A program made the translations under genes and the position numbers. The notes beneath the pieces are model-generated. The model was not told the DNA's origin, did no database searches, and was given only the letters and a program-made list of their open reading frames with translations. Of a DNA stretch of 64,000 bases, positions 4,705 to 62,968 are shown in pieces. Within the stretch, counting starts at the first letter, position 1. Each line of letters starts with the position of its first letter. Origin of the DNA: an uncultured Actinomycetota bacterium (lineage in GTDB: Bacteria > Actinomycetota > UBA4738 > HRBIN12); contig CAVVSH010000015.1 in assembly GCA_963750945.1 (NCBI GenBank), positions 554,215 through 618,214 of the forward strand, read 5' to 3'.

Positions 4705-5826
4705 GTGTCCGAGGCTGTCCGAGTGGAAGCCGTGCGTCCCGACGCGAGCGGTTCCGCGCCTGCCGTCGCGCTGGAGGACGTGGTCAAGCGCTTCGGGGAC
4801 GTCGTGGCGGTAGACGGCGTCAGCCTGGACGTGCGCCAGGGGGAGTTCTTCTCCTTGCTCGGCCCGTCCGGCTCCGGCAAGACCACCTGTCTCCGGATGA
4901 TCGCGGGATTCGAGCGACCGACCGAGGGGCGGATCCTCCTCGACGGCACCGACGTCTCCGACCTTCCGCCGTTCGAGCGCGATGTGAACACGGTGTTCCA
5001 GGACTACGCGCTGTTCCCACATATGACCGTCGCCCAGAACGTCGGCTACGGACTGATGGTGCGGAAGATTCCGAGAGACGAGCGGCACAAGCGGGTTTCC
5101 GACGCGCTGGAGATGGTCCGACTCGAGCGCATGGGTGACCGGAAGCCCGGACAGCTCTCGGGTGGACAACGACAGCGCGTCGCGCTCGCACGGTCGCTCG
5201 TGATGCGACCGACGGTGCTCCTGCTGGACGAGCCGCTCGGCGCGCTCGACCTGAAGCTCCGGCAGGCGATGCAGATCGAGCTGAAGGAGATCCAGCAGGA
5301 GGTGAGCCTCACCTTCATCTACGTGACGCACGACCAAGAAGAGGCGCTCACGATGAGCGATCGTCTCGCGGTCTTCAATGAGGGCAAGGTGGAGCAGGTG
5401 GGCACGCCGGCCGAGGTCTACGAGCTTCCGGCCACGGCGTTCGTCGCCGGGTTCATCGGTGTGTCGAACGTGCTCGACGGCGAGGTCGCCGAACGGATCA
5501 CGGGAAGCGACCACGCGTTCACCATCCGTCCCGAGAAGATCGCGATCGTCCCGATCGACGAGGTGGCCGGCGAGTCACAGTGCACGGCAACCGGCCACGT
5601 CCGAGAAGTCGTATACCTCGGTGCCATCACCCGCTACATCGTCGAGCTCGACGAAGGGGGAGAGCTGGTCCTGATGCAGCAGAACCTCGAGACCAGCTCG
5701 ATGGAGGCGTTGCAGGTCCGAGGGAAAGCGGTCCGCCTTCGGTGGGATCGAAGCAACAACAGGCCCGTGGAGGCAACGGGGGGGAACGAGGGGTCCGCGA
5801 GGGACCCGGAAGAGGGGGTTGTATGA
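4705..5826 (+). CDS. potA: Spermidine/putrescine ABC importer ATP-binding protein
   Basis: Walker [10 protein letters not shown], signature LSGGQRQR, Walker B LLLDEP, H-loop, and a C-terminal TOBE domain. GTG at 4705 is preceded by GGAGAGGGGGAA, a better SD than the track TTG at 4657. Confidence 0.85.
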
Positions 5827-7064
5827 GGAAGGTGAGCCGATGGCTCGTCGGATTCGCCGCGTTGACGCTGATCGCGGCGGCGTGCGGCGACGACACGACG
5901 GAGCCGGGTGGCGGCGACGACATCAAGACCTACGATTCGATCGGTGATGGTGAGGGCCAGCTGAAGCTGATCGCCTGGCACGGGTACACCGAGGACGGAA
6001 CGACCGAGGGCTATGAGGAGTACGACTGGATCACGCCGTTCGAAGACGACACGGGCTGTGAGGTCGAGGTCACATACGCCGACAGCTCGGACGAGATGGT
6101 GCAGCTGATGCGACAGGGTGGTGGATCCGAGTACGACGGCGTCTCCGCGTCCGGCGACGCGTCCAACCGCTTGATCGCCGGCGGCGACGTGGGTGCCGTC
6201 GACCCGAGTCTATTCCCGGAGATGGCGAACGTCATCGCGCCGATCAACCCGGACGGCGGCACGAACGCCGACCACTACGTCGTGGACGGCAACGTCTACG
6301 GCACCCCGTACATGTACGGGCCCAACTTCCTCATGTACAACACCGAGGAGGTCAGTCCCGCGCCGACGAGCTGGGACGTGACGTTCGAGGCGGACTCGCC
6401 GTACGCCGGCAAGGTGACGGCCTACGATTCGCCGATCTTCATCGCCGACGCGGCCATGTACCTGATGGCGCATCAGCCCGATCTGGGGATCACCGATCCC
6501 TACGAGCTGACGCAGGAGCAGTTCGACGCTTCCGTCGACCTGCTGAAGCAGCAGAAGGCGGAGCTGATCAGCGCGTATTGGGCGCTGTACACGGATGAGA
6601 TCGACGGGTTCGTGGACGGATCGATGGTGGTCGGGACCGCATGGCCCGTGAACCTCACGTACACGAAGGGACCGGACGCCGCCAACACGGCAGCCGTGGT
6701 TCCCTCGGAGGGTGTGACCGGCTGGGCCGACACGTGGATGATCTCGGCCAACGCACCCAACCCGAACTGCATGCTCAAGTGGATGGACCACACCCTCCAG
6801 CCGGACGTCCAGGCGGAGGTCGGGATCTACTACGGCGCCGCCGGCTCGAACGTCGAGTCCTGCCAGGTCATCGCCGACACCCTCGGCGAGGGTGGCGAGG
6901 ACCTGGTCGACTCGGTCGAGTACTCGTTCTGCGGAAACGAGGAGTTCCTGGACTCGATCCACCTGTGGAAGACGCCGCAGGTGGCCTGCGGCGACGACCG
7001 GGGCAACGAGTGCATCGACTACTCCCAATGGACGCAGGCCTGGACCGAGATCCGCGGTACCTAG
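5823..7064 (+). CDS. Polyamine ABC transporter substrate-binding lipoprotein (PotD/PotF family)
   Basis: Signal peptide with lipobox ([11 protein letters not shown]) starting at ATG 5823, which is in frame within track ORF 5580..7064. PotD-like fold length. Confidence 0.8.
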
Positions 7065-11341: not shown

Positions 11342-11345
11342 GGCG

Positions 11346-11417
11346 CGCCCCCGGCAGGATTCGAACCTGCGCCCCCGGCTCCGGAGGCCGGTGCTCTATC
11401 CCCTGAGCTACGGGGGC
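11346..11417 (-). tRNA. tRNA-Arg (anticodon CCG)
   Basis: Reverse complement GCCCCCGTAGCTCAGGGGATAGAGCACCGGCCTCCGGAGCCGGGGGCGCAGGTTCGAATCCTGCCGGGGGCG folds as a cloverleaf: 7-bp acceptor stem, D-arm GCTC/GAGC, anticodon stem CCGGC/GCCGG with loop CTCCGGA, T-arm GCAGG-TTCGAAT-CCTGC. CCA is not encoded. Confidence 0.8.
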
Positions 11418-19406: not shown

Positions 19407-19457
19407 CCGCCGACCCGTTCCCACTCCATCGACACGGCCAACACCAGGAGAACGCAC

Positions 19458-20792
19458 ATGCGAACGCTCGCCCTCGTGGACGGTGAGCACTACCCGCCGG
19501 TGACGCGTGCCGCCTTGGAAGCGGCAGGGGAGCGCGGCCACGAGATCGTGGCCGCGCTCCTCGTCGGTGGGACCGAGAAGCTCGCTGCCGGCGACGCTCC
19601 ACCCGACCTCGGCGTCCCCGTCCTCGTCACGGCCGGCGGACGCATGGACGCGTTGCGGACCGCGATCGCCGAGCTGTCGCCCGAGGTGATCCTCGATCTC
19701 TCCGACGAACCGGTCCTCGGGTATCGCGAGCGGATGGAGATGGTGGCAGTCGCCTTGGTGGCGGGGGTGCCCTATCTCGGCCCCGACTTCCGGATCGACC
19801 CACCAGAGCTCGCCGCCCCGCTCGGCATCGCGACGCTCGCGGTCATCGGCACCGGGAAACGGACGGGCAAGACCGCGATCGCCGGGGCGGTCGCTCGCCT
19901 GGCGGCCCGCCGCGGTCTGGAGCCGGTCGTCGTCGCGATGGGCCGCGGCGGGCCGCCGGAGCCCACCCTCGCGATGGCCGGTTCGGTCGACCTCGACCAG
20001 CTCGTTCGGCTGGTCGCCGAGGGGCAGCACGCGGCGTCGGACTACCTGGAGGACGCCATCACGACCGGCGTGACCACGGTGGGTGCCCTGCGCGCCGGCG
20101 GCGGGCTCGCCGGCGCGCCCTACGTGTCCAACGTCAGGGAGGCCGCCGAGCTGGCAGCCTCCCTCCACCCGGGGCTGGTGATCCTCGAGGGGAGCGGAGC
20201 GGCGATCCCGCCGGTGCCGTGGGACGCGGCCATCCTGGTGGTGCCCGCCACCGCCCCTCCGGAGTACCTCGGCGGCTACCTCGGCCCGTACCGGCTCTTG
20301 CGGTCCGATCTGGTGGTTGTTACCATGACAGGCGACCCATCCGGGTCCGAAAACCTTTCCGCGCTCCGGTCCCCTGTTCGGCGCTACCTGGACGATGCGG
20401 CGTTCATCCTGACGGACTTCGTTCCGGTAGCGCTGGAAGATATCCGGGGCAAGGAAGCGTTCTACGCTACGACTGCTCCTCCAGGGGTGGTCGAGAGGCT
20501 GATCCGACGCCTCGAAGCCGACCATGGGTGCACGGTCGTGGGCTGGAGCGCTCGACTGGCGGATCGCGCCGGTCTGGTCGAAGACCTCGATGCCGTCCAG
20601 GGATACGACGTCCTCCTCACGGAGCTGAAGGCGGCGGCCGTCGATACGGCGGTCGCCAGAGCCCTCGACCGAGGGGCGGAGGTCGTGTTCGTGGACAACC
20701 GCGCAGAGGCCGTGGAGGGATCCGCGGACCTCGACACCGCGCTCGGCGGCGCGATCGACATCGCGCTCGACCGGGCAGAAGACCGCTTATGA
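19458..20792 (+). CDS. Cyclic 2,3-diphosphoglycerate synthetase-like protein
   Basis: About 444 aa with a P-loop (GTGKRTGKT) and the overall length and composition of archaeal cDPGS. The call is supported by translational coupling (ATGA) to a clear 2-phosphoglycerate kinase. Confidence 0.55.
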   Translation: MRTLALVDGEHYPPVTRAALEAAGERGHEIVAALLVGGTEKLAAGDAPPDLGVPVLVTAGGRMDALRTAIAELSPEVILDLSDEPVLGYRERMEMVAVALVAGVPYLGPDFRIDPPELAAPLGIATLAVIGTGKRTGKTAIAGAVARLAARRGLEPVVVAMGRGGPPEPTLAMAGSVDLDQLVRLVAEGQHAASDYLEDAITTGVTTVGALRAGGGLAGAPYVSNVREAAELAASLHPGLVILEGSGAAIPPVPWDAAILVVPATAPPEYLGGYLGPYRLLRSDLVVVTMTGDPSGSENLSALRSPVRRYLDDAAFILTDFVPVALEDIRGKEAFYATTAPPGVVERLIRRLEADHGCTVVGWSARLADRAGLVEDLDAVQGYDVLLTELKAAAVDTAVARALDRGAEVVFVDNRAEAVEGSADLDTALGGAIDIALDRAEDRL

Positions 20793-24167: not shown

Positions 24168-24395
24168 ATGAAACAGGGCATCCACCCCGAATACCAGATC
24201 GCCAACGTCCACTGCTCGTGTGGCAATACGTTCCAGACCCGCTCCACCGTGAGCGAGATCCGCGCAGAACTCTGCTCGAACTGCCACCCCTTCTACACCG
24301 GCAAGCAGAAGTTCGTGGACGCGGGCGGCCGTGTCGAGCGGTTCCAGCGGCGGTACGCGAAGACCCAGGCGGCCCAGCAGGCGCAGCAGGGCTAA
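24168..24395 (+). CDS. rpmE: 50S ribosomal protein L31 (zinc-binding type)
   Basis: MKQGIHPEY start with two CxxC pairs (CSCG and CSNC). Confidence 0.9.
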
Positions 24396-39952: not shown

Positions 39953-41221
39953 ATGGACCGCCTCTTCGTCACGGGCGGCGCCCGTCTCGCCGGATCCGTC
40001 CGGATCTCGGGCGCCAAGAACTCCGCACTCAAGCTCATGGCCGCCTCGCTGCTCGCACCGGGTCGTTCGGTGCTGCGCAACGTTCCTCGCATCCTGGACT
40101 GCTTCACGATGGGGGAGGTCCTCGAGCACCTCGGGGCGGGCGTCTCGTGGGAGGAAGGGGGGGTGGCGGTCGACGCGACACACCTTTCCTCGGTCGAGGC
40201 CCCCTACGAGCTGGTCCGGCGGATGCGTGCATCGATCGCCGTCCTCGGGCCGTTGCTCGCCCGCACCGGCGAGGCTCGCGTCGCGATGCCGGGCGGCGAC
40301 AACATCGGCTCGCGTCCGATCGACCTCCATCTCGACGGCCTCCGGCGGATGGGCGCCGAGATCGTCGCCGAGCACGGGTTCCTGGTCGCGCGGGCCGACG
40401 GCCTCACCGGCGCATCGATCACCCTCGACTATCCGAGCGTCGGGGCCACCGAGAACCTGATGATGGCGGCGGTCACGGCCGAGGGCGTCACGGCGATCGA
40501 CAACGCCGCCCGAGAGCCCGAGATCGCGGACCTGGCCGCGTACCTCGTCGCGATGGGCGCGGGGATCCGCGGCGCCGGTTCCGCGACGATCGAGGTCGTG
40601 GGGGTTGAGGAACTGCGGGCGGCCGAGCACTCGGCGATCCCCGATCGGATCGAGGCCGGCACGTGGGCCGCGGCCGCGGTCGCGACCCGCGGCGACCTCG
40701 TGCTGGACGGCGCCCGCCCCGACCACCTCGAGCTGTTCCTCGAGAAGCTGGCGGAGGGCGGCGCCGAGATCCGGATGACGGACGAGGGGCTGCGGGTGAG
40801 GCAAGCCGAGCGGACGAAGGCCGCCGACTTCGTGACGCTGCCCTATCCGGGGCTCGCCACCGACTTCCAGCCGATCCTGCTGGCGATGCTCGCCACCGCG
40901 AACGGCACCAGCATCGCCACCGAGAACGTCTTCGAAGGGAGGTTCACCTACGTGGACGAGCTGCGCCGGATGGGCGCGGACATCCGCACCGAGGGGCACC
41001 ACGCGGTGATCCGCGGCGTCGAGCAGCTGTCCGCTGCGCCGGTCCGGGCGATGGACATCCGAGCGGGGGCCGCGATGGCGATCGCGGCGCTGACGGCGGA
41101 CGGCGTGAGCGAGATCGCCGACATCGACCACGTCGATCGGGGCTACGAGGACTTCGAAGCGAAGCTCACCGCGCTCGGCGCCGAGGTCAGGCGCGACCCC
41201 GAGCTCGTCCGTCTCCCGTGA
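39953..41221 (+). CDS. murA: UDP-N-acetylglucosamine 1-carboxyvinyltransferase
   Basis: EPT-family fold with the active-site loop (KNSALKLMAAS). Downstream of atpC as in mycobacteria. Confidence 0.9.
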   Translation: MDRLFVTGGARLAGSVRISGAKNSALKLMAASLLAPGRSVLRNVPRILDCFTMGEVLEHLGAGVSWEEGGVAVDATHLSSVEAPYELVRRMRASIAVLGPLLARTGEARVAMPGGDNIGSRPIDLHLDGLRRMGAEIVAEHGFLVARADGLTGASITLDYPSVGATENLMMAAVTAEGVTAIDNAAREPEIADLAAYLVAMGAGIRGAGSATIEVVGVEELRAAEHSAIPDRIEAGTWAAAAVATRGDLVLDGARPDHLELFLEKLAEGGAEIRMTDEGLRVRQAERTKAADFVTLPYPGLATDFQPILLAMLATANGTSIATENVFEGRFTYVDELRRMGADIRTEGHHAVIRGVEQLSAAPVRAMDIRAGAAMAIAALTADGVSEIADIDHVDRGYEDFEAKLTALGAEVRRDPELVRLP

Positions 41222-42879
41222 GGAAGGCGCTCCTCGCGGCGCTCGTCGCGCTGATCGCGGTCCCTCTGCCCGCGTCAGCTCAGCCCGTACCTCGTCAGGC
41301 TGTCGTTCTCTTCGTGGACGGCGTCTCGATGCCGGAGCTGCTCGAGGTCCCAGAGGTGCGAGCGATGGCGACACGAGGCGGCGTAGCCCTCATGAATGGT
41401 CGTTCGAGTGCGCGCGGCGAGATCCGAGCCATCCTGGAGGAGCATCCGGACAAGGCGACACAGCTGGAGATCGGCGGCCCCGGCCGGGTCGAGGATCTCG
41501 CTGTTGTTCTCGGCAAGGTTGGCTTCGTCGGCCGTGGCCCCACACTGCTGATGGTCATCTCGACGTCGCCGTCGGCGGCGTCGGCCGCGGACGGCGACGA
41601 GCTCGGGACCGTGATCGCCGCGTGGGGCGATCCGGAACAGCTCCTCGAGGCCCAGGGCGAGCCGCGGACGCTCACATCGGACTCCACGAGGCGCGCCGGT
41701 GTCGTCGCCGACGTCGACCCCGCCGCGACGGTCGCCGAGTGGCTGGACCTGCCGTATGAGGCCGGCGCGCCGATGAGACCCACCAGTGAGCCGGCGCCCC
41801 TGGATCTCTACGAGCGCTACCTCCAGCAGCGCCGGCTCGCCGTGCCGGTCGCCGCCGGTGCGTGGGGCTTGATGTTGCTTTTCGGCCTGGCCGGGGTCCT
41901 CGCGCTGGTGTTCCGCCGTCGCGTGTCCCCCCGTACCCTCGCGGTCGCCGGCGCGCTCGTCGGCTCGCTGCCGTGGCTCGCCCTCGGCCTCTTGCTCGTG
42001 GGTCACCTGCCGTCGCTCACGTACGCGACCGCCGTTCCGTTCCTGGTGACGACGATGGTGGCCGGTGTCGTGTTCACCCGGTGGATGCAAAGGCGCCGAA
42101 GCATCTTCGTCTCCATCGCGGCCTCCGGGGCCGTGATCCTCGTCGTCCTGGGCATCGAGGCGGCGCTCGGCTGGCCCGCGGCCGTCACCCCGCTCGCGGG
42201 CGGCGGGCAGCTGGACGGCGGCCGCTTCTTCGGGATGCCGAACATCGAGATCGGGATCGTCCTCGGGTCCGCGATGTTCCTCGCGCACCGCATCCGAGTG
42301 GGCTCCGGTGTCCTGCTCCTCGCCGCCTGCGCCGTCATCGCCGGGTCGCCGTGGACCGGGTCGAACTTCGGCGCGGCGATCACGCTCTTCGCGGCTGCCG
42401 GCCTCTGGCTCGGGATCCGACGCCGCCGCCCGTGGTGGTTGATCGTCGTGATCACCGGCGCGTTCGCGGCTCTCGGGACGGCCGCGGTCGCGCTGATGCA
42501 CCGGTACCTGACCGACCGGTCCACCCACGTCACCGCGTTCCTCGAGGAGACCGACGGCGTCGTGGGGGCCGTCGAGCGACAGCTCGACCGTCTTGGCGTG
42601 GGGCTCGACCTGATCGCCGACAATCCGCTCGCGCTGATACCGGTGGTGGGCACACTGATCCTGCTGATCATCGTGCTCCGCCCGCCGACGGCGATCGCGC
42701 AGTCCTTCGAGGGACACGACGCCTGGCACGATGCCCTTCTCGTCATCGCGCTCGGGTCGATCGTCGCTTACCTCGCCGAAGACACCGGCGCGGCGGCCGT
42801 CGGCTTCGCGTTCGGGTTCGCGCTGTCCGGTCTCATCGACGTGTCGCTCGACTCCGCCCGGAGGATGATTGCCCGATGA
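41218..42879 (+). CDS. Hypothetical exported membrane protein with an N-terminal signal peptide, an extracytoplasmic domain of about 200 aa, and a C-terminal polytopic membrane domain (about 10 TM)
   Basis: GTG overlaps the murA stop. Signal peptide ALLAALVALIAVPLPASAQP. The extracytoplasmic block VVLFVDGVSMPEL is faintly alkaline-phosphatase-superfamily-like. The C-terminal 300 aa are highly hydrophobic. Confidence 0.5.
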   Translation: MRKALLAALVALIAVPLPASAQPVPRQAVVLFVDGVSMPELLEVPEVRAMATRGGVALMNGRSSARGEIRAILEEHPDKATQLEIGGPGRVEDLAVVLGKVGFVGRGPTLLMVISTSPSAASAADGDELGTVIAAWGDPEQLLEAQGEPRTLTSDSTRRAGVVADVDPAATVAEWLDLPYEAGAPMRPTSEPAPLDLYERYLQQRRLAVPVAAGAWGLMLLFGLAGVLALVFRRRVSPRTLAVAGALVGSLPWLALGLLLVGHLPSLTYATAVPFLVTTMVAGVVFTRWMQRRRSIFVSIAASGAVILVVLGIEAALGWPAAVTPLAGGGQLDGGRFFGMPNIEIGIVLGSAMFLAHRIRVGSGVLLLAACAVIAGSPWTGSNFGAAITLFAAAGLWLGIRRRRPWWLIVVITGAFAALGTAAVALMHRYLTDRSTHVTAFLEETDGVVGAVERQLDRLGVGLDLIADNPLALIPVVGTLILLIIVLRPPTAIAQSFEGHDAWHDALLVIALGSIVAYLAEDTGAAAVGFAFGFALSGLIDVSLDSARRMIAR

Positions 42880-48336: not shown

Positions 48337-48379
48337 ACGTGACGGACTCACGTGTGGTTCGCGGCCGTATCCTCGAAGC

Positions 48380-50014: not shown

Positions 50015-50161
50015 GGCCAGTTGCAAGGCGTTGCAAGAACAGGGTAGGCCTGCCTGCATGGCAGTGCGACACGCCGTCGCTCGGCCCTCCTGCCTGCCCT
50101 GCTCCTCGACGGAGGCGCCTGCTCGACGAGCTCGCCCGCCGACGAGTCTCTCGTCCAGGTC

Positions 50162-51051
50162 GTGACGACCGTCTCTCCGATCACCAACATCGTGCAGAAC
50201 GTGGGCGGCGACCGCGTCTCCGTCTCGGGGATCGTGCCGGAGGGAACGAACAGCCACACGTTCGAGCCTGCCCCCGCGGACGCTGCGCTGATGGAGGAGG
50301 CCGAGATCGTCTTCATCAACGGGCTCCACCTCGAGGAGCCCACGCGGGAGCTCGCGGAGGCGAACGTGGGCGAGGAGGTGCCGATCGTCCAGCTCGCCGA
50401 TCGGACGATCTCCGAGGACGAGTACATCTTCGACTTCTCGTTCCCTGAGTCCGAGGGTTTCCCGAACCCCCACCTCTGGACGAATCCTCCCTACGCGAAG
50501 GAGTACGCCGAGATCGTGAAGGCCGAGCTCTCGAAGCTGGATCCTGAGGGGGCGTCGACCTACCAGGAGAACCTCGACGCGTTCGCCCGGCGCCTCGACG
50601 GCCTCGATCAGGCCGTCCGGACCGCGACGGCGACCGTCCCCGAGGAAGACCGGAGGTTGCTCACCTACCACGACTCGTTCCCCTACTTCGCCCGCGAATA
50701 CGGTTGGGAGGTGGTGGGAGCGATCCAGCCGTCGGACTTCGCCGAGCCCACCCCGCAGGAGGTGGCGGGATTGATCGAGCAGATCCGAACGGAAGACCTC
50801 CCCGCGATCTTCGGCTCGGAAGTGTTCCCCAGTCCGGTGCACGAGCAGATCGCGGCGAGACCGGGACGACATACGTGGATGATCTCCGAGACCACGACCT
50901 GCCGGGCGAGGCGGGCGACCCCGACCACAGCTACCTCGGGCTGATGGTGTTCGACTTCACGACGATCGTGGACGCGCTCGGTGGCGACGGCTCGGCCTTC
51001 CAGGGCATCGACGTCGCCAACCTCTCGACCGGCGGCGGGGCTCGATACTGA
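50162..51051 (+). pseudogene. znuA: Metal (Zn/Mn) ABC transporter substrate-binding protein ZnuA/TroA family. Interrupted by a -1 frameshift near 50851, and no canonical start codon precedes the signal peptide.
   Basis: Frame 2 reads ...EQIAAR and then nonsense. The conserved C-terminus (TYVDDLRDHDLPG...LMVFDFTTIVDALGG) continues in frame 1 (track ORF 50704..51051). gcggcgagacc looks like gcggcgGagacc minus one g. The upstream in-frame peptide RRRSALLPALLLDGGAC looks like a lipoprotein signal but has only a CTG start. Confidence 0.65.
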
Positions 51052-51859
51052 TGGAAGATCTCGTCCGCCTCGAGCGGGTCACGTGTCGGTACGGCAGGGA
51101 CCCCGTCCTGGTGAACGTGGATCTCGAGATCGGAGCAGGTGAGTTCGTCGGGATCGTCGGCCCGTCGGGCAGCGGCAAGAGCACCTCCTGAAGGCGATCG
51201 CCGGGTCCGTCGAGCCCATCGCCGGCCGGATCGAACGCGCCTCCGATCTCTCGATCGGCTACGTCCCGCAGGTCGAGACGGTGAACTGGTTCTTCCCGGT
51301 GACCGTGCGCGAGGCGATCCTCATGGCTCGGGTCGACGGTCGGCGGCTGCCCTGGCCGTCGAAGCAGGAGGTCGCGGAAGCAGAGGAGGTGCTCGAGCGG
51401 CTGGACCTCGCGGGCCTCGCGAACCGGCACATCCGGGAGCTCTCGGGCGGGCAACAGCAGCGGGTCTTCATCGCGCGCGCGATGCTCGGGCGACCACGGC
51501 TGCTCCTCCTGGATGAGCCCACCAGCGGGATCGACGTCCGAACCCGTCACGACGTGATGCACGTGATCCACGACTTGCATCACGAGGGCCTCGCGATCGT
51601 GCTGACGACGCACGACCTGAACGGGATCGCGTCGCACCTGCCGCGGCTCGTGTGCCTGAACCGCGAGGTCATCGCGACGGGCTCGCCGCGTCAGGTGATC
51701 ACCAGCGAGGTTCTCGAGAAGACCTACGGCGCGCCACTCGAAGTGCTCTCGCACGGCGGGATGCCGGTGGTGCTCGAGCAGTACCCCGAGCTCCTCGACG
51801 ACCGAGACGGCGCGAAGGTGCTGCCGCTCCGGGAGGACCACCATGAACACCCTGCTTGA
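51051..51859 (+). pseudogene. znuC: Metal ABC transporter ATP-binding protein ZnuC, with a -1 frameshift inside Walker A
   Basis: From ATG 51051: ...GPSGSGKSTS*. The other frame then reads LLKAIAG...VNWFF and joins track ORF 51281..51859 (LSGGQQQR, LLLLDEP, TTHDL). agcacctcctg looks like agcacCctcctg minus one c. Confidence 0.7.
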
Positions 51860-52683
51860 GCCCTTCAGCTACGAGTTCTTCCAGCGGGCGCTCATCGTCG
51901 CCACGATCACCGGCGCTCTCTGCGGGCTGATCGGCGTCTACGTCGTCCTGCGAGGGATGAGCTACATCGGTCACGGCCTGTCGCACGCGATCTTCGGAGG
52001 TGCGGTGGCGAGCTACATCGTGGGTGTCAACGTCTTCCTTGGTGCCGGGCTCTGGGGATTGGTCTCCGCGCTGTTCATCAACAAGGTCGCTCGCCGACGT
52101 TCGATCGGCGCCGATGCAGCGATCGGCGCGATCACGTCGGCGAGCATCGCCATCGGCATCATCCTGATCTCGACGCAGCGGACGTTCATCGTGAACTTCG
52201 AAGCCCTGCTGTGGGGCAACGTGCTGGGCGTCGCCCCCGCCGACGTGCTCGTCGTGCTCGGCGTCGCGATCGCGTCGACGATCTTCGTCTTCTTCGGCTA
52301 CCGCCAGCTGCTGTTCTCGACGTTCGATCCCGAGGTGGCCGAGGTCTCCGGCGTGCGGACCGCTCGCGTCGACGTCGGGCTGGCGGTGATGCTCACCGCC
52401 ACGATCGCCGCGACCATGACCGTGAACGGGTGACGATGATCGCGGCGATGCTCGTGATCCCGCCGGTCATCGGACGCCTCCTCACCGACTCGTTCAGCGG
52501 ATACTGTGGATCTCGGTCGGCGCCGGCACGCTGTGCGGGTTCGTGGGCGTCTACGGTTCGTACTACTTGAACTGGTCCTCGGGCGGCACCGTCGTCCTGG
52601 CCGCCGGAGTCCTGTTCGTCGTGGCCTTCGTGTTCAGCGGCTGGCGGCGCAAGCTCCCTGCACTCGGCGCCGGGGCGCACTGA
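51843..52683 (+). pseudogene. znuB: Metal ABC transporter permease ZnuB, with two -1 frameshifts
   Basis: ABC-3 permease is continuous across three frames (51843..52433, then VTMIAAMLVIPPVIGRLLTDSF, then ILWISVGAGTLCGFVGVY...AH* ending 52683). Single-base losses are inferred at gggtgacg (about 52430) and ttcagcgg (about 52497). Confidence 0.65.
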
Positions 52684-52686
52684 TCG

Positions 52687-53088
52687 TCAGGCGGCAGCGC
52701 AGTCGGCGCACAGACCCGTGATCGCGAAGTGCGTCAGGTCGGCGACGAAGCCGTGATGGCGGCGGATCAGCTTCTGGAGCTTGTCGGCTTCGTCCAGAGA
52801 GAGCTCGTCGTCCTGACCGCAGTTCCGGCAGGTGAGGTGGACGTGGTGCGCCTCGTCCGCCCGGTGGTACTCGGCGCCGGTCTCGACGTGGGAGTGCTGG
52901 AGCACGCCGACGCTCTCCAGGAGGGACAGGGTCCGGTAGACGGTCGAAGCGTTCACGCCCGGCATGTCGCCCTGGATCTTGCGCGCGATGGCGGTCGGGG
53001 AGATGTGACCCTTGGCACGCATCACCTCCGCGACGATCGCTCGGCGCTGTGGCGTCATGCGCAACCCCCGGCTCCGGAGCTGATCCAT
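52687..53088 (-). CDS. zur: Fur family transcriptional regulator, probably Zur
   Basis: 133-aa Fur fold with a winged helix, HHxH and CxxC (CRNCG...CADC) metal sites. Convergent with znuACB. Confidence 0.75.
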   Translation of the reverse strand: MDQLRSRGLRMTPQRRAIVAEVMRAKGHISPTAIARKIQGDMPGVNASTVYRTLSLLESVGVLQHSHVETGAEYHRADEAHHVHLTCRNCGQDDELSLDEADKLQKLIRRHHGFVADLTHFAITGLCADCAAA

Positions 53089-53156
53089 CAGGTCGGTGTA
53101 GGACGCATCCACGAAACGGAATAGTAGCAGCGTGTTGCAGGTGCAAGTTCCGGTCG

Positions 53157-54041
53157 CTACGCCGGCGGCGGGAGGTCCAGGAGCCGAGCCGCCCACGGCA
53201 GGGCAGTTCTCGACTGCATCAGCTGCAGGGGACGGGCGTGAGGTGCCTGTGGGATCGCGGGCAGACCCGCCCGCGCACAGAAATAGCCGGCCAGCAGCGA
53301 CGCGATCGCGGGCAACCCGGGGGTCTCGTCCGGGAGGATCACGTGCGGCGCCGGGCCGCCTTCGGCCTCGAGACTGGGAAGCCAGGAGGCGGTATCCAGC
53401 ACCGGGTTCCCGACGCATGCGCTGTTCCAGTCGACCAGCACGACGCGACCGTCCCGGGCACAGAGGTTGTCGCTCCGCACGTCGAAGTGCAGCAATGAGG
53501 TCCCCCCGATCTCGGCCGTGGCCGACGCCGCCGCGAGCGTGGGCAGGTGATGGAGCCAGTTCGCAGAGCAGAGTCCGAGCGAGAGGAAGGGCTCCGGGTC
53601 GGCGATCACGGCCGGCCAGCCGTCCTGCCCGAACTGGCTCTCGACGGCACCAGGCACCCCTTCGGGCGGCGGCGTCGCATGCACGGACGCGAGGCTCGCG
53701 AGGACGGCGTCGATCCGTGCGAAGTCCCACGGCGGAGGCCACGTCGCACCGGACAGATCCTCGAGGGCGAGCGCGGGGGCCAGCCCGTCGTCATCCCAAC
53801 CGGCCAGGCGCGGGAGGAAGGGCTGCCCGTCGAGCGCCGAGTAGATACGGAACTCGTCTCGCAGCCATTCCGCCGTGTAGTCATAGGCCGCGATCTTCAC
53901 GAACGCCGACCGCCCGTCCTCGAGGTCGACGACGAATCGCCTGTTCGACGGGGCGCCGTGCCCGGACGCAGCACGCCAAGCCACGGGCGCCGACCCGATG
54001 GCGCGGCGCACCCGTTCGACGTCGGCGACGTCGGGCTGCAT
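53157..54041 (-). CDS. Phosphotransferase enzyme family protein (APH/choline-kinase-like)
   Basis: Brenner motif HFDVRSDNL and the Mg site VDWNSA. Confidence 0.7.
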   Translation of the reverse strand: MQPDVADVERVRRAIGSAPVAWRAASGHGAPSNRRFVVDLEDGRSAFVKIAAYDYTAEWLRDEFRIYSALDGQPFLPRLAGWDDDGLAPALALEDLSGATWPPPWDFARIDAVLASLASVHATPPPEGVPGAVESQFGQDGWPAVIADPEPFLSLGLCSANWLHHLPTLAAASATAEIGGTSLLHFDVRSDNLCARDGRVVLVDWNSACVGNPVLDTASWLPSLEAEGGPAPHVILPDETPGLPAIASLLAGYFCARAGLPAIPQAPHARPLQLMQSRTALPWAARLLDLPPPA

Positions 54042-54099
54042 CTCGGGAGGGTAACTGCGTCATGGGACCCAGGCGGTCCGCCGGTAGCATCGCCGGACC

Positions 54100-56639: not shown

Positions 56640-56696
56640 GGACCCCCCTTCGCGGAACCCCCCGACGACCCTCCCGCCCGGGAGGGTCGTCGCGTG

Positions 56697-57283
56697 TCAG
56701 TCACGGTCGGTCAGGTCACGACCTCGGGTGACAGTCGTCGCCTCGCCTGGACTGATCGTCTGCTGGAAGAAGTACGTTTGCGTTCGCTCCGTTGAAGACC
56801 GCCGCCCGAAGCGCGGTGCCGGACTTCCAGGGCCTCCAGTGCCCGGGCCGATCGGGTACTGCACCCCGAATCGCAGGTCGTGGGAGAGGCGTTTTCGCCA
56901 CCTCACCGTGAAGGAGTTCGTGGACGGCGCCGCCAGCGCTCTCGGGAGCACCTTGATCGGGGCATGCCATTGCCCGAGGACGACGGCGGAGAGGTAGGTC
57001 CCGGCCCCGAGGATCCGTCTTTCCCTCTCCTCGCCGGGATCCAGGGTCACGGTCCAGAACCCGTCACGTTGGTACACGGTTTGGGTGCCGGTGCACGCGT
57101 TGTCTATCGTGATGGTCTCGCCGAGAAGGTGGACCGCGTCGGGCTGGACATGGAGGCGGCAGCTGAGATCGAACTGGGTGAGCGCCTGCAGGATCGTCCG
57201 CGGCTCGGGACGCGGAACGCCTGCCGATGCCGATCCGCGCCGGCCACGAGAGCGATCGCGATCCCGAGGGCAACTCTCTTCAT
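56697..57283 (-). pseudogene. Small secreted protein of about 190 aa with a frameshift between the signal peptide and the mature region. It uses codons that are unusual for this genome.
   Basis: Minus-strand ATG at 57281-57283 gives MKRVALGIAIALVAGA (signal peptide) and then runs out of frame. The long ORF (track 56697..57602) continues in another frame as ...HLLGETITIDNACTGTQTVYQRDGFWTV.... Rare codons (ata, aga, aaa, caa) are seen. Confidence 0.35.
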
Positions 57284-57440
57284 CAAGGTTGACGATCTTT
57301 CGGCGCAGGTTGCGGAGGATAGGGCGTTCTTGGGCAGGTCTGCCTGATTCAAGGTAGGCGATCTTCCCGCCGATGCAGGCAGGAGACCGCTCCCCCCGAG
57401 CGCGATGCCGATGCCGAATGAAACAGAGCAACCTCCCGCG

Positions 57441-59433: not shown

Positions 59434-62400
59434 ATGATCTGTTCGAACTGCGGTGTCGAGAACGAGCACGGAAGGAAGTTCTGCGGCAGTTGCGGCAGCG
59501 CCTTGTCGGTGGTCTGCGGCGTGTGCGCCACTCCAACTCCCGCGGAACGAAGTTCTGTGGCGATGTGGGTCGTCGCTCGCGACGAACCGGCGGCGGAAGT
59601 CGTCAGGGACATGCCCGCAGCCGAGCGTCGGCTGTATCCGTGCTGTTCGCGGATCTCGTCGGCTTCACGACGATCTCGGAATCGCGAGACCCCGAAGAGG
59701 TCCGTGAGCTGCTCACGGGCTACTTCGACACCTGCCGGCGCCTGATCGATCGATACGGAGGGACGGTCGAGAAGTTCATCGGCGACGCCGTCATGGCGGT
59801 GTGGGGGGCGCCGGTGGCGAAGGAGGACGACGCCGAGCGCGCGGTCCGCGCGGCGCTCGAGCTCACCGCCGCGGTCGCGAACCTCGGTGAGGACGCGGGA
59901 GCGGCCGACCTGCGCGCGCGGGCCGGGGTGCTCACCGGTGAGGCCGCGGTCACGCTCGGCGCCGAGGGACAGGGCATGGTCGCCGGCGATCTAGGTGAAC
60001 ACCGCCTCGCGCATCCAGGCGACGGCGAAGCCGGGTGGAGGTGTTCGTCGGCGATGCGACCAAGCGGGCGAGCGATGCTGCGATCGCGTACGAGGACGCC
60101 GGTTCTCACGAGCTCAAGGGGAAGGCGGAGCCGATGCAGCTCTGGCGCGCCGTGCGGGTGGTCGGGCTCGGAGAGGCGTGGCCACCTCCTCTGCACTCGA
60201 GCCGCCGTTCGTCGGCCGCGATCGCGAGCTCCGCCTCGTGAAGGAGCTGTATCACGCTACCGCCGACGAGCATCGGACACAACCTCGTCTCGGTGATCGG
60301 CGTCGGCGGGATCGGCAAGTCCCGCCTGGCATGGGAGTTCGAGAAGTACTTCGACGGCCTCGCCGACGACGCGTGGTGGCATCGAGGGCGCTGCCTCGCG
60401 TACGGGGACGGAGTCGCGTTCTGGGCGCTCGCCGAGATGGTGCGAGGGCGGGCCGGGATCGTGGAGGACGAGGACTCCGTCTCCGCGTCGGCGAAGCTCC
60501 GGGCGATCGTGGACGACATCGTGCCCGATCCGAACGAACGGCGGTTCGTCGAGCCGAGGCTCGCACAGCTCCTCGGGCTCGAGGACCGGCCGCCGGGAGA
60601 CGAGGCGAACCTCTTCGCCGCATGGCGGCTCTTCTTCGAGCGGATGTCGGACACCGACCCCGTGATCATGCTGTTCGAGGACATCCACTGGGCCGACAGC
60701 GCACTGCTAGAACTTCATCGAGCACATGCTCGACTGGTCCCGGGAGCGGCCGATCTTCATCCTGACGCTTTCCCGGCCCGAGCTACTGGACCGTCGACCC
60801 ACGTGGGGAGCGAGCAAGCGTGGGTTCACCTCGATCTTCCTCGAGCCGCTGCCAGACGGAGGCGATGGAATCGTTGTTGGCCGGACCGCTCCCAGGACTT
60901 CCCGTTGACGTCCTCGAGAAGATCCTGCAGCGGGCCGAGGGTGTTCCCTTCTATGCGGTGGAGACGGTACGGATGCTGCTCGACCGGGGCCTGATCGTCC
61001 GGGAGGGGAACGTCTACCGGGCGACCGGACCGATCGAGACGCTGAGGTCCCGGAGACGCTGCAGGCGCTGATCGCCGCGAGACTCGACGGCCTCGCGACC
61101 GACGAGCGGTGGCTCCTTCAGCGCGCCTCGGTGCTCGGGAAGTCCTTCACGCTTCAGGGGCTGGCAGCCGTGACGGACATCGAGGAGGCGCAGCTCGAGC
61201 CCACGCTGTCCTCGCTCGTACACAAGGAGGTCCTGGGGGTCACGACCGATCCGATGTCGCCCGAGCGAGGCCAGTACGGGTTCCTGCAGGACCTCGTGAA
61301 GAAGGTGGCGTACGACACGATGTCACGACGGGAGCGCAAGGCTGGGCATCTCGCGGCCGCCTCGTACCTCCTCGGTGCCGTGGACGAGGACGAGATCGTC
61401 GAGGTGGTGGCGGCCCACTACCTGGACGCCTACAAGGCTGAGCCCAACGCCGACGACTCGAGCGTGATCCGGACGAAGGCGCGGGACATGCTGATCCGGG
61501 CCGCCGAGCGAGCCGCCTCGCTGGGCGCCAACGCCGAGGCGCAGCGTTCGTTCGAGCACGCGACGGAGCTTGGAGACGACAGGCTGGAACAGGCCGGGCT
61601 CCTGGAACGTGCAGGGCGTATGGCGCGCGCCGGCGGACGGGCGGATGAGGCCACCGCCCACTACGAACGATCGATCTCGCTGTTCGAGGCCGAGGGTGCG
61701 ACACACCCGGCAGCCCGCGTGTCCGCCCGTCTGGCGGAGATCATGTGGGACCGGGGGCGGCTCGGCGACGGCGTCCGGCGGATGGAGCGCTCGTTCGCGG
61801 TGCTCTCGGAGGAGGAGCCCGACAGCGACCTGGCGGCGGTCGCGGCGACGCTCGCGCGGCTGCTGTTCTTCTCCGGGCAGGCGGCCGCGGCCGCGGAGCG
61901 CGTCGAGGTGGCGCTGGAGATCGCCGAAGCACTCGGGCTCCCGGAGGTCTTGTCCCAGGCCCTGAACACGAAGAGCCTCGTCCTGCTCGCGCGCGGGCGA
62001 CAGCGCGAGGCGCTCGCACTCTTGCGGTACGCCCTGGACGTCGCGCTGGACCACGAGATCCCGACGGCTGCGCTCCGCGCGTACTACAACCTCACCGACG
62101 CCGCGATCCAGGTCGATTCGTACCGTGAGGCGACCGAGCGGATCCAGTCGGGGCTGGCGCTGGCTCGCCGGGTCGGCCATCGCGACTGGGAGTGGCAGTT
62201 CGTCGGCCAGATGTACCCGCAGGTCGCGCTGGGCGAATGGGACGACGTGCTCGAAACCGCCGAAGCGTTGCCCCACGACGTGATCGACGACAACCGCATC
62301 GCGTACAACGGGTTCCTGTGCACCATCCCCTCGATCCGCGTCCACCGAGGGGAGCTCGACGGAGGCGAAGACCAGCCACGCGATCTTCGCCGACGCGGAG

Positions 62401-62968
62401 ACGTCCGACGACATGCAGGAGCGAGCGACCGCGGCGGCGGGGGCGGCGATCATCGCCCTGCGCGGAGGGGCGGCAAGAGGATGCCTTGCGCGACGCGCAG
62501 CAGGCGCTCGAGGCACGGAGTGAGCTCGGCATCGGCCACGAGGCGATGAAGGACGCGTTCGTGGAGGGGGTCGAGGCCGCCATCGCTCTGGACAAGCTCG
62601 AGGAAGCCGAGGAGATCCTGTCGATCGTGGCGGCGATCCCGCCCGGCCGACAGAGCCCGTACCTCGATGCGCACACCCTGCTGCTGCCGAGGCGGAAGCC
62701 GTCAGGGCGACGCGAGCCGGTGGAGTCCGGATACAAGAGCGCGGTCGGCATGTTCCGCGAGCTGGAGACGCCGTTCTGGCTGGCGGTCGCTCTCCTCGAG
62801 TTCGCGGAGTGGCTAGTGAACGAGGGTCGGAAGGACGACGCGAAACCGCTCCTGGATGAGGCTCGCGAGTGTTCGAGCGTTGCGAGCAAGACCCTGGCTG
62901 GAAAGGGTCGAAGCAGTCGCGATAGACTGTGCCACATCGGCTGAGATGGGTCGAGAAGTCGCTGTTAG
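59434..62968 (+). pseudogene. Large multidomain regulator: double zinc ribbon, class III adenylyl/guanylyl cyclase domain, AAA/STAND ATPase and TPR repeats. Fragmented by eight or more frameshifts.
   Basis: Recognisable blocks lie in successive frames. MICSNCGVENEHGRKFCGSCG is in frame 1. NSRGTKFCGD...VLFADLVGFTTISE...KFIGDAVMAVWGAP is the cyclase domain in frame 3. VNTASRIQATAKPG, EVFVGDATKRAS, PPFVGRDRELRL, IGVGGIGKSRLAWEF and ...HWADSALLELH follow, then the TPR region (61131..62549 and 62192..62944), ending ARPWLERVEAVAID* at 62968. The junctions inspected look like single-base losses in G/C runs. Confidence 0.65.

Follow-up and report, generated by a model that had tools for sequence, protein, structure and literature searches.

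In Streptomyces coelicolor the znuACB operon adjoins zur, and actinobacterial znuACB-zur loci are, together with the AztABC/TroA-like cluster A-I importers, the closest described counterparts of the locus treated here. That locus, znuA-znuC-znuB (znuACB below), occupies positions 50058-52683 of a 64 kb stretch of DNA from an uncultured Actinomycetota bacterium; the whole stretch that was analyzed is called the window, and its G+C content is 68.9%. The locus resembles these systems in the order substrate-binding protein (SBP), ATPase and permease, in the Fur-family regulator gene that adjoins it, and in the presence of a putative, conserved palindromic operator upstream, but differs from them in that its regulator scores higher with the PerR and Fur models than with the Zur model. 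It also has the families PF01297, PF00005 and PF00950 in common with them, and its SBP is without a His-rich loop.

A preliminary description of this DNA had reported the three genes to be broken by single-base deletions and had offered two readings, genuine decay of the uptake system or a local cluster of homopolymer errors. We favor the error cluster, with the reservation that the errors are not of the classical homopolymer type. The frameshifts probably reflect a patch of faulty consensus, in an accessory segment that a long-read metagenome assembly covered only thinly, and the lesions would then most probably exist in the sequence but not in the organism. znuA-znuC-znuB is most likely a normal, functional metal-uptake operon under the adjoining Fur-family regulator.

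Organization of the znuACB operon and location of the lesions

Three genes make up the operon:

50058..51051, plus strand: znuA-like substrate-binding lipoprotein gene (PF01297), with two frame changes
51051..51859, plus strand: znuC-like ABC ATPase gene, with one frame change, in the Walker A codons
51843..52683, plus strand: znuB-like permease gene (PF00950, ABC-3), with two frame changes

Three-frame translation showed that each of these genes is readable only with frame changes, every one of which is a -1 step with one base absent. The znuA gene begins with the ATG at 50058 in phase 0, passes to phase 2 from about 50079 and to phase 1 from 50857, and reaches its stop at 51051. The ATG of znuC (51051) overlaps that stop (TGATG), and the gene runs in phase 0 and then, from 51185 to 51859, in phase 2. 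The znuB gene, from its ATG at 51843 to its end at 52683, is read in phase 0 until it passes to phase 2 at 52430 and then, at 52498, to phase 1. The Pfam matches agree with the translation. The unrepaired first ZnuA fragment spans positions 1-232 of the 263 of the PF01297 profile, ABC_tran is cut inside Walker A (profile positions 2-26, then 27-137), and ABC-3 falls into two parts (1-187 and 213-257), with a 22-codon piece in the third frame. The matches show the fragments to be consecutive parts of single domains, and the earlier statement that the three genes are recognizable only across frames is borne out by both approaches. A first plot by frame of G+C at third codon positions (GC3) was too noisy for calling frameshifts and was replaced by the alignments and the Pfam profile coverage.

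The lesions were located by multiple alignment with 10 relatives (handles beginning with L) and the sister contig L030, and by a second approach, a frameshift-aware protein-to-DNA alignment with the proteins of L001 and L002. Exactly five window-specific insertions or deletions (indels) break a coding frame in the region from 43.3 to 55.0 kb, and all five are one-base deletions in znuACB:

between 50078 and 50079: deletion 1, signal-peptide region of znuA, where L030 reads GTCGGCT
between 50856 and 50857: deletion 2, znuA, where relatives read GCGGC(G/A/C)GAG
between 51184 and 51185: deletion 3, Walker A of znuC, where relatives read AGCAC(G/C)CTC
between 52429 and 52430: deletion 4, znuB, where relatives read CGG(T/C)GTG
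52498: deletion 5, znuB, where relatives read AGCCGG

The protein-to-DNA alignment gave the same five sites and placed no frameshift within mcm, meaB, prsW, adh, sdr, ECH or the regulator gene. Apparent frameshifts at 48355, 53119/53161, 54047-54099, 54970 and 55036 were rejected as they lie in the non-coding 5' or 3' extensions of stop-to-stop reference translations. The four deletions named previously were each recovered as a one-base deletion relative to 10-17 relatives; the total, however, has to be raised to five by the deletion at 50078/50079, and a window-specific one-base insertion (G) is found in the promoter at 50047. We found no nonsense substitutions and no longer indels in znuACB, whose coding lesions consist solely of the one-base deletions.

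The deletions had been described as losses from short runs of G or C. This holds loosely, in that several sites lie in runs of 2-3 nt, but over the five sites run length is no more than 1-3 nt, and none of the operon's four 5-nt G/C runs is affected. At site 4 every relative has a T or a C between the G's, so this deletion is not the contraction of a G run. A homopolymer explanation was rejected on these grounds. A search for a motif common to the five sites (for example a methylation motif such as GATC) found none.

Adding one base at each site gave proteins of 331, 269 and 280 amino acids (aa). Against NCBIfam the repaired products cover AztC (1-277 of 277), AztB (2-254 of 254) and AztA (full length). 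The repaired ZnuA (331 aa) is 91-94% identical to the intact 331-aa proteins P0001 and P0002 and 86-94% identical to homologues of 331-333 aa; it has the lipobox GGAC/S and a hydrophobic core with a window-specific V>D replacement. The repaired ZnuC contains the motifs GPSGSGKST (Walker A), LSGGQQQR (signature) and LLLLDEP (Walker B). After repair, then, the SBP fold with its lipoprotein signal, the ATPase motifs and the PF00950 permease expected of a TroA-like importer are all present, whereas the open reading frames (ORFs) of the deposited sequence are interrupted by the five deletions. From these features the operon is predicted to be a TroA-like (cluster A-I) metal ABC importer. The best NCBIfam matches were AztC/AztA/AztB, and also MntC/MntA of Deinococcus, all below the equivalog cut-offs; for the SBP, the bit scores and cut-offs were 192 and 350 for AztC, 170 and 400 for MntC, and 64 and 268 for ZnuA.

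Orthologous loci and strain-variable segments

A comparison with orthologous loci of related strains, as the preliminary description had proposed, found collinear, intact znuACB in at least 13 Actinomycetota metagenome-assembled genomes (MAGs). With the repaired ZnuB as query against species-representative genomes, 13 such MAGs have the protein in one piece, with a match covering residues 1-280 at 89-95% identity, and the neighborhood common to these relatives is meaB-mcm-znuACB-regulator-aph-sdr. Many of the 13 are Microflora Danica long-read MAGs. The sister contig L030 (ENA ERZ25039541, contig_104488; about 96% nucleotide identity to window positions 40287-61618) has the missing base at all five sites. 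Four truncated products (260, 46, 192 and 196 aa) occur in a public protein collection from one contig only, of 831,296 nt; the same breaks were found in none of the 120 homologues listed and in no other assembly, and no JGI protein listed is more than 94% identical to ZnuA.

Could slippage during transcription, or programmed +1 ribosomal frameshifting, allow the operon to be expressed in spite of its frame changes? Each lesion is one missing base, and beyond this nothing points to recoding. Five separate events in three genes would be needed, and one of them would have to take place within the Walker A codons. No motif is common to the five sites, none has a slippery homopolymer, and each of the at least 13 orthologues is an uninterrupted open reading frame. 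For want of a conserved recoding signal, programmed frameshifting is effectively refuted, and we give expression by recoding a negligible probability.

Two further contigs carry the locus in a different form. L031 (ENA ERZ25039550, contig_59400, 283 kb, about 95% identity) matches the window up to 50059, at the znuA ATG, and again from 52693. Between these points it has about 930 nt (L031 12668-13596) coding for a membrane protein with an HX4DH motif and a His-rich loop, whose match to NicO (PF03824) is at threshold with 28.3 bits. L032 (ERZ25039586, 164 kb, about 90% identity) has the same arrangement, with the NicO-like gene at about 5500-6410 (reverse complement). In both, the NicO-like gene replaces window positions 50060-52692 and adjoins the same Fur-family regulator as znuACB does. 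By their sequences, znuACB and the NicO-like permease are thus putative alternative metal-transporter cassettes at one locus, behind one conserved operator.

In L030 and L031 themselves essentially all genes are interrupted by one-base indels, at intervals of a few hundred bases; those of L030 are nearly all G or C insertions. Genes called from these contigs are fragmentary, as with ZnuA (253 aa), ZnuB (227 aa) and FUR (72 aa). L031 lacks the aminoglycoside-phosphotransferase-like gene aph on the other side of the regulator (53189-54061, minus strand; PF01636 in L032), which the window, L030, L032 and the other relatives have in intact form. A 645-nt insertion at 56689-57333 is present in the window only, the corresponding stretch of L030, L031 and every other relative being about 35-45 nt; it has a lower G+C content and a 170-aa minus-strand ORF that has no Pfam match.

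A second frameshift cluster in the window

The surrounding genes had been described as intact. This stands for mcm, meaB, the regulator gene (zur in that description), aph, sdr, ECH and pabBC, but not for a large gene farther downstream:

59434..62944, plus strand: cyclase gene of about 1170 aa (double zinc ribbon, adenylate/guanylate cyclase, AAA_16 and TPR domains), with at least 15 one-base indels

In the window this gene falls into no fewer than nine ORF pieces. Scored against the intact orthologues of L005 (1175 aa, from a short-read MAG) and L032 (1172 aa), it has at least 15 window-specific indels, some of them insertions and others deletions. The deletions include those at 59532, 59562, 59633, 60168 and 61043, and insertions of A include those at 59993, 60279, 60709 and 60854. 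The cluster lies 7 kb from that of znuACB and is denser. Elsewhere the window appears sound: in the range of 0.5-38 kb, 40 predicted genes have Pfam matches that extend across their profiles, without any family being divided between neighboring ORFs, intact examples being ArgRS, homoserine dehydrogenase, ThrC, Rho, RF1, SHMT and the ATP synthase operon. The damage is thus confined to two stretches (2.6 and 3.5 kb, 6.1 kb in all), and about 55 kb of other coding sequence is without split genes. Under uniform placement, the chance that all of about 20 indels fall within 6.1 of 64 kb is about 4e-21.

Both damaged stretches are strain-variable. The segment from 59.4 to 62.95 kb is absent from L002-L004, L006, L007, L009, L010 and L031, present in L030, L005 and L032, and partly present in L008. 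The lesions of the first stretch (50047-52631) and those of the second (59532-62935) fall inside the strain-variable boundaries.

Changes in the cyclase gene were polarized over its first 2.2 kb, with L030 as sister and L005 as outgroup. The branch leading to the window has 33 synonymous and 8 non-synonymous changes, 30 of them at third codon positions, and on this ratio the gene is under strong purifying selection on the window's lineage. In bacteria roughly 0.1-0.2 indels per substitution are typical, and 8-15 neutral indels would imply tens of non-synonymous changes (P of at most 8 given 35 = 4.5e-8). With so few non-synonymous changes, the frameshifts of the cyclase gene are not old mutations, and a burst of 15 very recent frameshifts in this gene is not credible. 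Evidently, the window's contig contains error patches.

Substitutions in znuACB

The window-branch substitution rate in znuACB (3.7-10.9 per kb) is not raised relative to that of the neighboring genes (4.8-30.7 per kb), and GC3 of the operon is 0.88. Relative to the substitutions, the indels are in excess: 5-6 indels stand against 13-17 substitutions, and at assumed indel to substitution ratios of 0.2-0.3 the probability of finding at most 8 non-synonymous changes is 0.002-0.06. The spectrum is also abnormal. Four of 13 window-derived changes in znuACB are T>A, a type that is absent among 71 changes of the core (Fisher p = 3.7e-4); A>T does not occur. The substitutions unique to the window (50109..52631) are all at positions that are invariant in 10 relatives:

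50109 (V>D, signal peptide), 50841 (L>H), 52146 (F>I) and 52426 (I>N): T>A
50871 and 52281: C>A
50893 (D>H): G>C
52503 (M>I): G>A
52631: C>T

Two of these lie next to lesions, the T>A at 52426 being 3 nt from deletion 4 and the G>A at 52503 being 5 nt from deletion 5. The cyclase gene has similar features: the four insertions that could be polarized with L030 are all of A, C>A occurs five times and G>T not at all, and one substitution is right beside an indel (60709/60711). Such an A-biased, strand-asymmetric spectrum, together with pairs of substitutions and indels, looks like base-calling or consensus errors from few reads and not like fixed, double-stranded mutations.

Consensus error or decay

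True decay is marked by nonsense mutations, larger deletions and a ratio of non-synonymous to synonymous substitution rates (dN/dS) near 1 in combination. Genuine recent pseudogenization would mean that znuACB is no longer needed, for example where there is another zinc importer, and that a first, polar frameshift was followed by further deletions and radical substitutions, the Fur-family regulator being kept since it controls other genes. A bacterial deletion bias would fit five deletions and zero insertions in coding sequence. In the same operon, however, there are neither substitution-derived stops nor multi-base deletions, and 5-6 indels are too many for the approximately 13-17 lineage-specific substitutions. 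T>A without A>T is not a known bacterial spectrum and is absent from the 71 core changes. The lesions were not seen in any other assembly; they are those of one contig, and L030 has all five bases. Finally, the second frameshift cluster of the same contig sits in a gene under purifying selection, which means that the assembly does yield such clusters as artefacts. We therefore consider pseudogenization unlikely.

A consensus error would arise as follows. Microflora Danica MAGs were assembled from Nanopore reads only, with Flye and one round of Medaka (PMC12313526), and R10.4 bins with less than about 40x coverage retain indels that cause frameshifts (Sereika et al. 2022, PMC9262707). Judging from its MAG relatives, the source contig would come from a Nanopore-only metagenome assembly of the same type. 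In this sample znuACB would be an accessory cassette held by only some of the strains that presumably occur together, others having the NicO-like permease at that site. The shared flanks would receive the summed depth of these strains and the cassette only that of its carrier strain; because only some strains carry the cassette, its depth would be far below that of the flanks, and its reads may come from one strand only. Polishing would then leave errors of the raw-read type, namely one-base indels, N>A miscalls and substitutions beside indels, and the second accessory segment, 7 kb downstream, would have been hit likewise. The raw contigs L030 and L031 would illustrate a consensus of this quality where depth is low along an entire contig. 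What would be expected of such errors is found here: a second indel cluster in a gene under purifying selection, a strain-variable location, and an abnormal, strand-asymmetric spectrum.

Several observations weigh against a consensus error, and some of them favor decay. On the window branch, non-synonymous and synonymous changes in znuACB stand at 8:9, a higher ratio than the 15:53 of conserved neighbors or the 1:5 of the L030 branch, and several of the replacements, at otherwise invariant residues, are radical (V>D, in the core of the signal peptide, L>H, D>H and I>N); the raised ratio, which is the chief argument for relaxed selection, and these replacements suit relaxed selection and error equally well. 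The operon was swapped for the NicO-like permease under the same operator in L031 and L032, and the locus therefore turns over in this clade; this comparison shows the operon to be dispensable there and a genuine loss to be plausible. The coding lesions of znuACB comprise nothing but deletions, five in number; in the second cluster insertions occur as well. The aph gene, absent from L031, is strain-variable yet undamaged in the window, and strain variability is thus not always paired with damage. The depth, strand bias and sequencing platform of the source contig are, moreover, what we infer. If the deletions are real, the ABC cassette would have been caught in the course of inactivation by multiple hits, with the regulator, the operators and a zinc-type ribosomal protein L31 kept; this we regard as rather improbable. 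It would offer a snapshot of turnover between ABC importer and NicO-like, His-rich permease cassettes in a clade of soil Actinomycetota.

Promoter, regulator and operators

The intergenic regions on both sides of the operon, and the regulator gene, contain the following features:

50021..50036, plus strand: operator-like palindrome TTGCAA-N4-TTGCAA upstream of znuA, from an intergenic alignment of 11 genomes with L031 and L032
50043..50050, plus strand: -10-like element, 7-8 nt before the znuA ATG, with the window-specific insertion of G at 50047
52687..53112, minus strand: Fur-family regulator gene (earlier called zur), intact and convergent with znuB
53134..53147, no strand assigned: conserved palindrome GTTGCAGGTGCAAG upstream of the regulator gene

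The -10-like element reads TAGGCCT in the window, TAGCCT in L030, L001-L003 and L008, and TAGGCT in L005, L009, L010, L012, L013, L031 and L032. The window's string thus unites TAGCCT with TAGGCT, the states of two haplotypes, and may point to reads from both having been piled up at the border of the cassette. As this element stands just 7-8 nt from the ATG, its position suggests that the znuA transcript may be leaderless.

The union bears on a further explanation, in which one or two of the lesions are real polymorphisms and the rest errors, or in which two znuACB haplotypes were merged and a base was dropped where they differ. Sites 2 and 3 are at wobble positions that vary among relatives (C/G/A and C/G, respectively), as would suit such a mixture. 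Site 4, in contrast, hardly varies, with T or C in all relatives; a second znuACB haplotype in the source sample would have to be assumed, and on sequence alone a mixture is inseparable from the consensus error that we favor. We consider a mixture very unlikely.

TTGCAA-N4-TTGCAA is kept in all relatives and also precedes the NicO-like cassette of L031 and L032; it is presumed to be a binding site of the Fur-family regulator. The palindrome GTTGCAGGTGCAAG is likely to be an autoregulatory operator. Both palindromes are invariant among relatives of 77-96% identity, in which the intergenic DNA around them varies. The operator found here differs from described Zur boxes. The regulator gene has 5 synonymous and no non-synonymous changes on the window branch. 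Against NCBIfam the regulator scored 73 bits with PerR (cut-off 180), 70 with Fur (cut-off 220) and 37 with Zur (cut-off 167), none of which reaches the cut-off. The claim that zur adjoins the operon therefore stands as regards a Fur-family regulator at that place, its assignment to Zur being no more than plausible. Since the equivalog scores of both the SBP and the regulator are all below cut-off, zinc rather than manganese is no more than a plausible substrate, and "zinc" and "Zur" are only plausible labels for the predicted importer and its regulator.

Other features of the window

Ribosomal protein L31 is encoded at 24168-24395 on the plus strand and matches the NCBIfam L31 equivalog with 112 bits. 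It has the type A motif with four cysteines (C16, C18, C37 and C40), in agreement with its earlier description as an L31 of the zinc-binding type, and no type B paralogue was seen in the window. Two long, apparently intact plus-strand ORFs without a Pfam match lie at 19419-20792 (457 aa) and 41215-42879 (554 aa), the latter of which is conserved and intact in L031 (553 aa). Scans of the window for tRNA genes and Rfam families returned only tRNA-Arg at 11345-11417.

Implications

If the lesions were real, a free-living soil actinobacterium would have lost an ABC-type zinc/manganese importer and kept the regulator, which is a modest point on metal homeostasis. The value of the case is mainly cautionary: frameshift errors of long-read MAGs can concentrate in strain-variable accessory segments, and the genes of such segments are those that comparative studies would score as strain-specific pseudogenes or as losses. 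In annotation, three functional genes and a large fourth one downstream would be called pseudogenes. Such artefacts can be flagged without reads, from the count of indels relative to synonymous and non-synonymous substitutions, from the substitution spectrum and from overlap with a variable segment. A real by-product of the analysis is the pair of alternative metal-transporter cassettes behind one conserved operator in this clade.

Comparison with known systems

Multi-hit pseudogenes of decaying bacterial genomes, such as that of Mycobacterium leprae, resemble znuACB of the window in having several independent frame-breaking lesions and synteny with intact orthologues. They differ in that znuACB has one-base indels only, a low substitution load and an abnormal spectrum, and in that a neighboring "broken" gene is under purifying selection.

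Artefacts of Nanopore-only assemblies (PMC9262707, PMC12313526) are similar in that one-base indels fragment conserved genes and do so in one contig only; L030 and L031, which are raw contigs of such an assembly type, show one-base indels throughout. In the window, by contrast, the indels are confined to two accessory segments (2.6 and 3.5 kb) of an otherwise clean 64 kb, lie outside long homopolymers and are accompanied by N>A substitutions, and the link to low depth is a presumed one.

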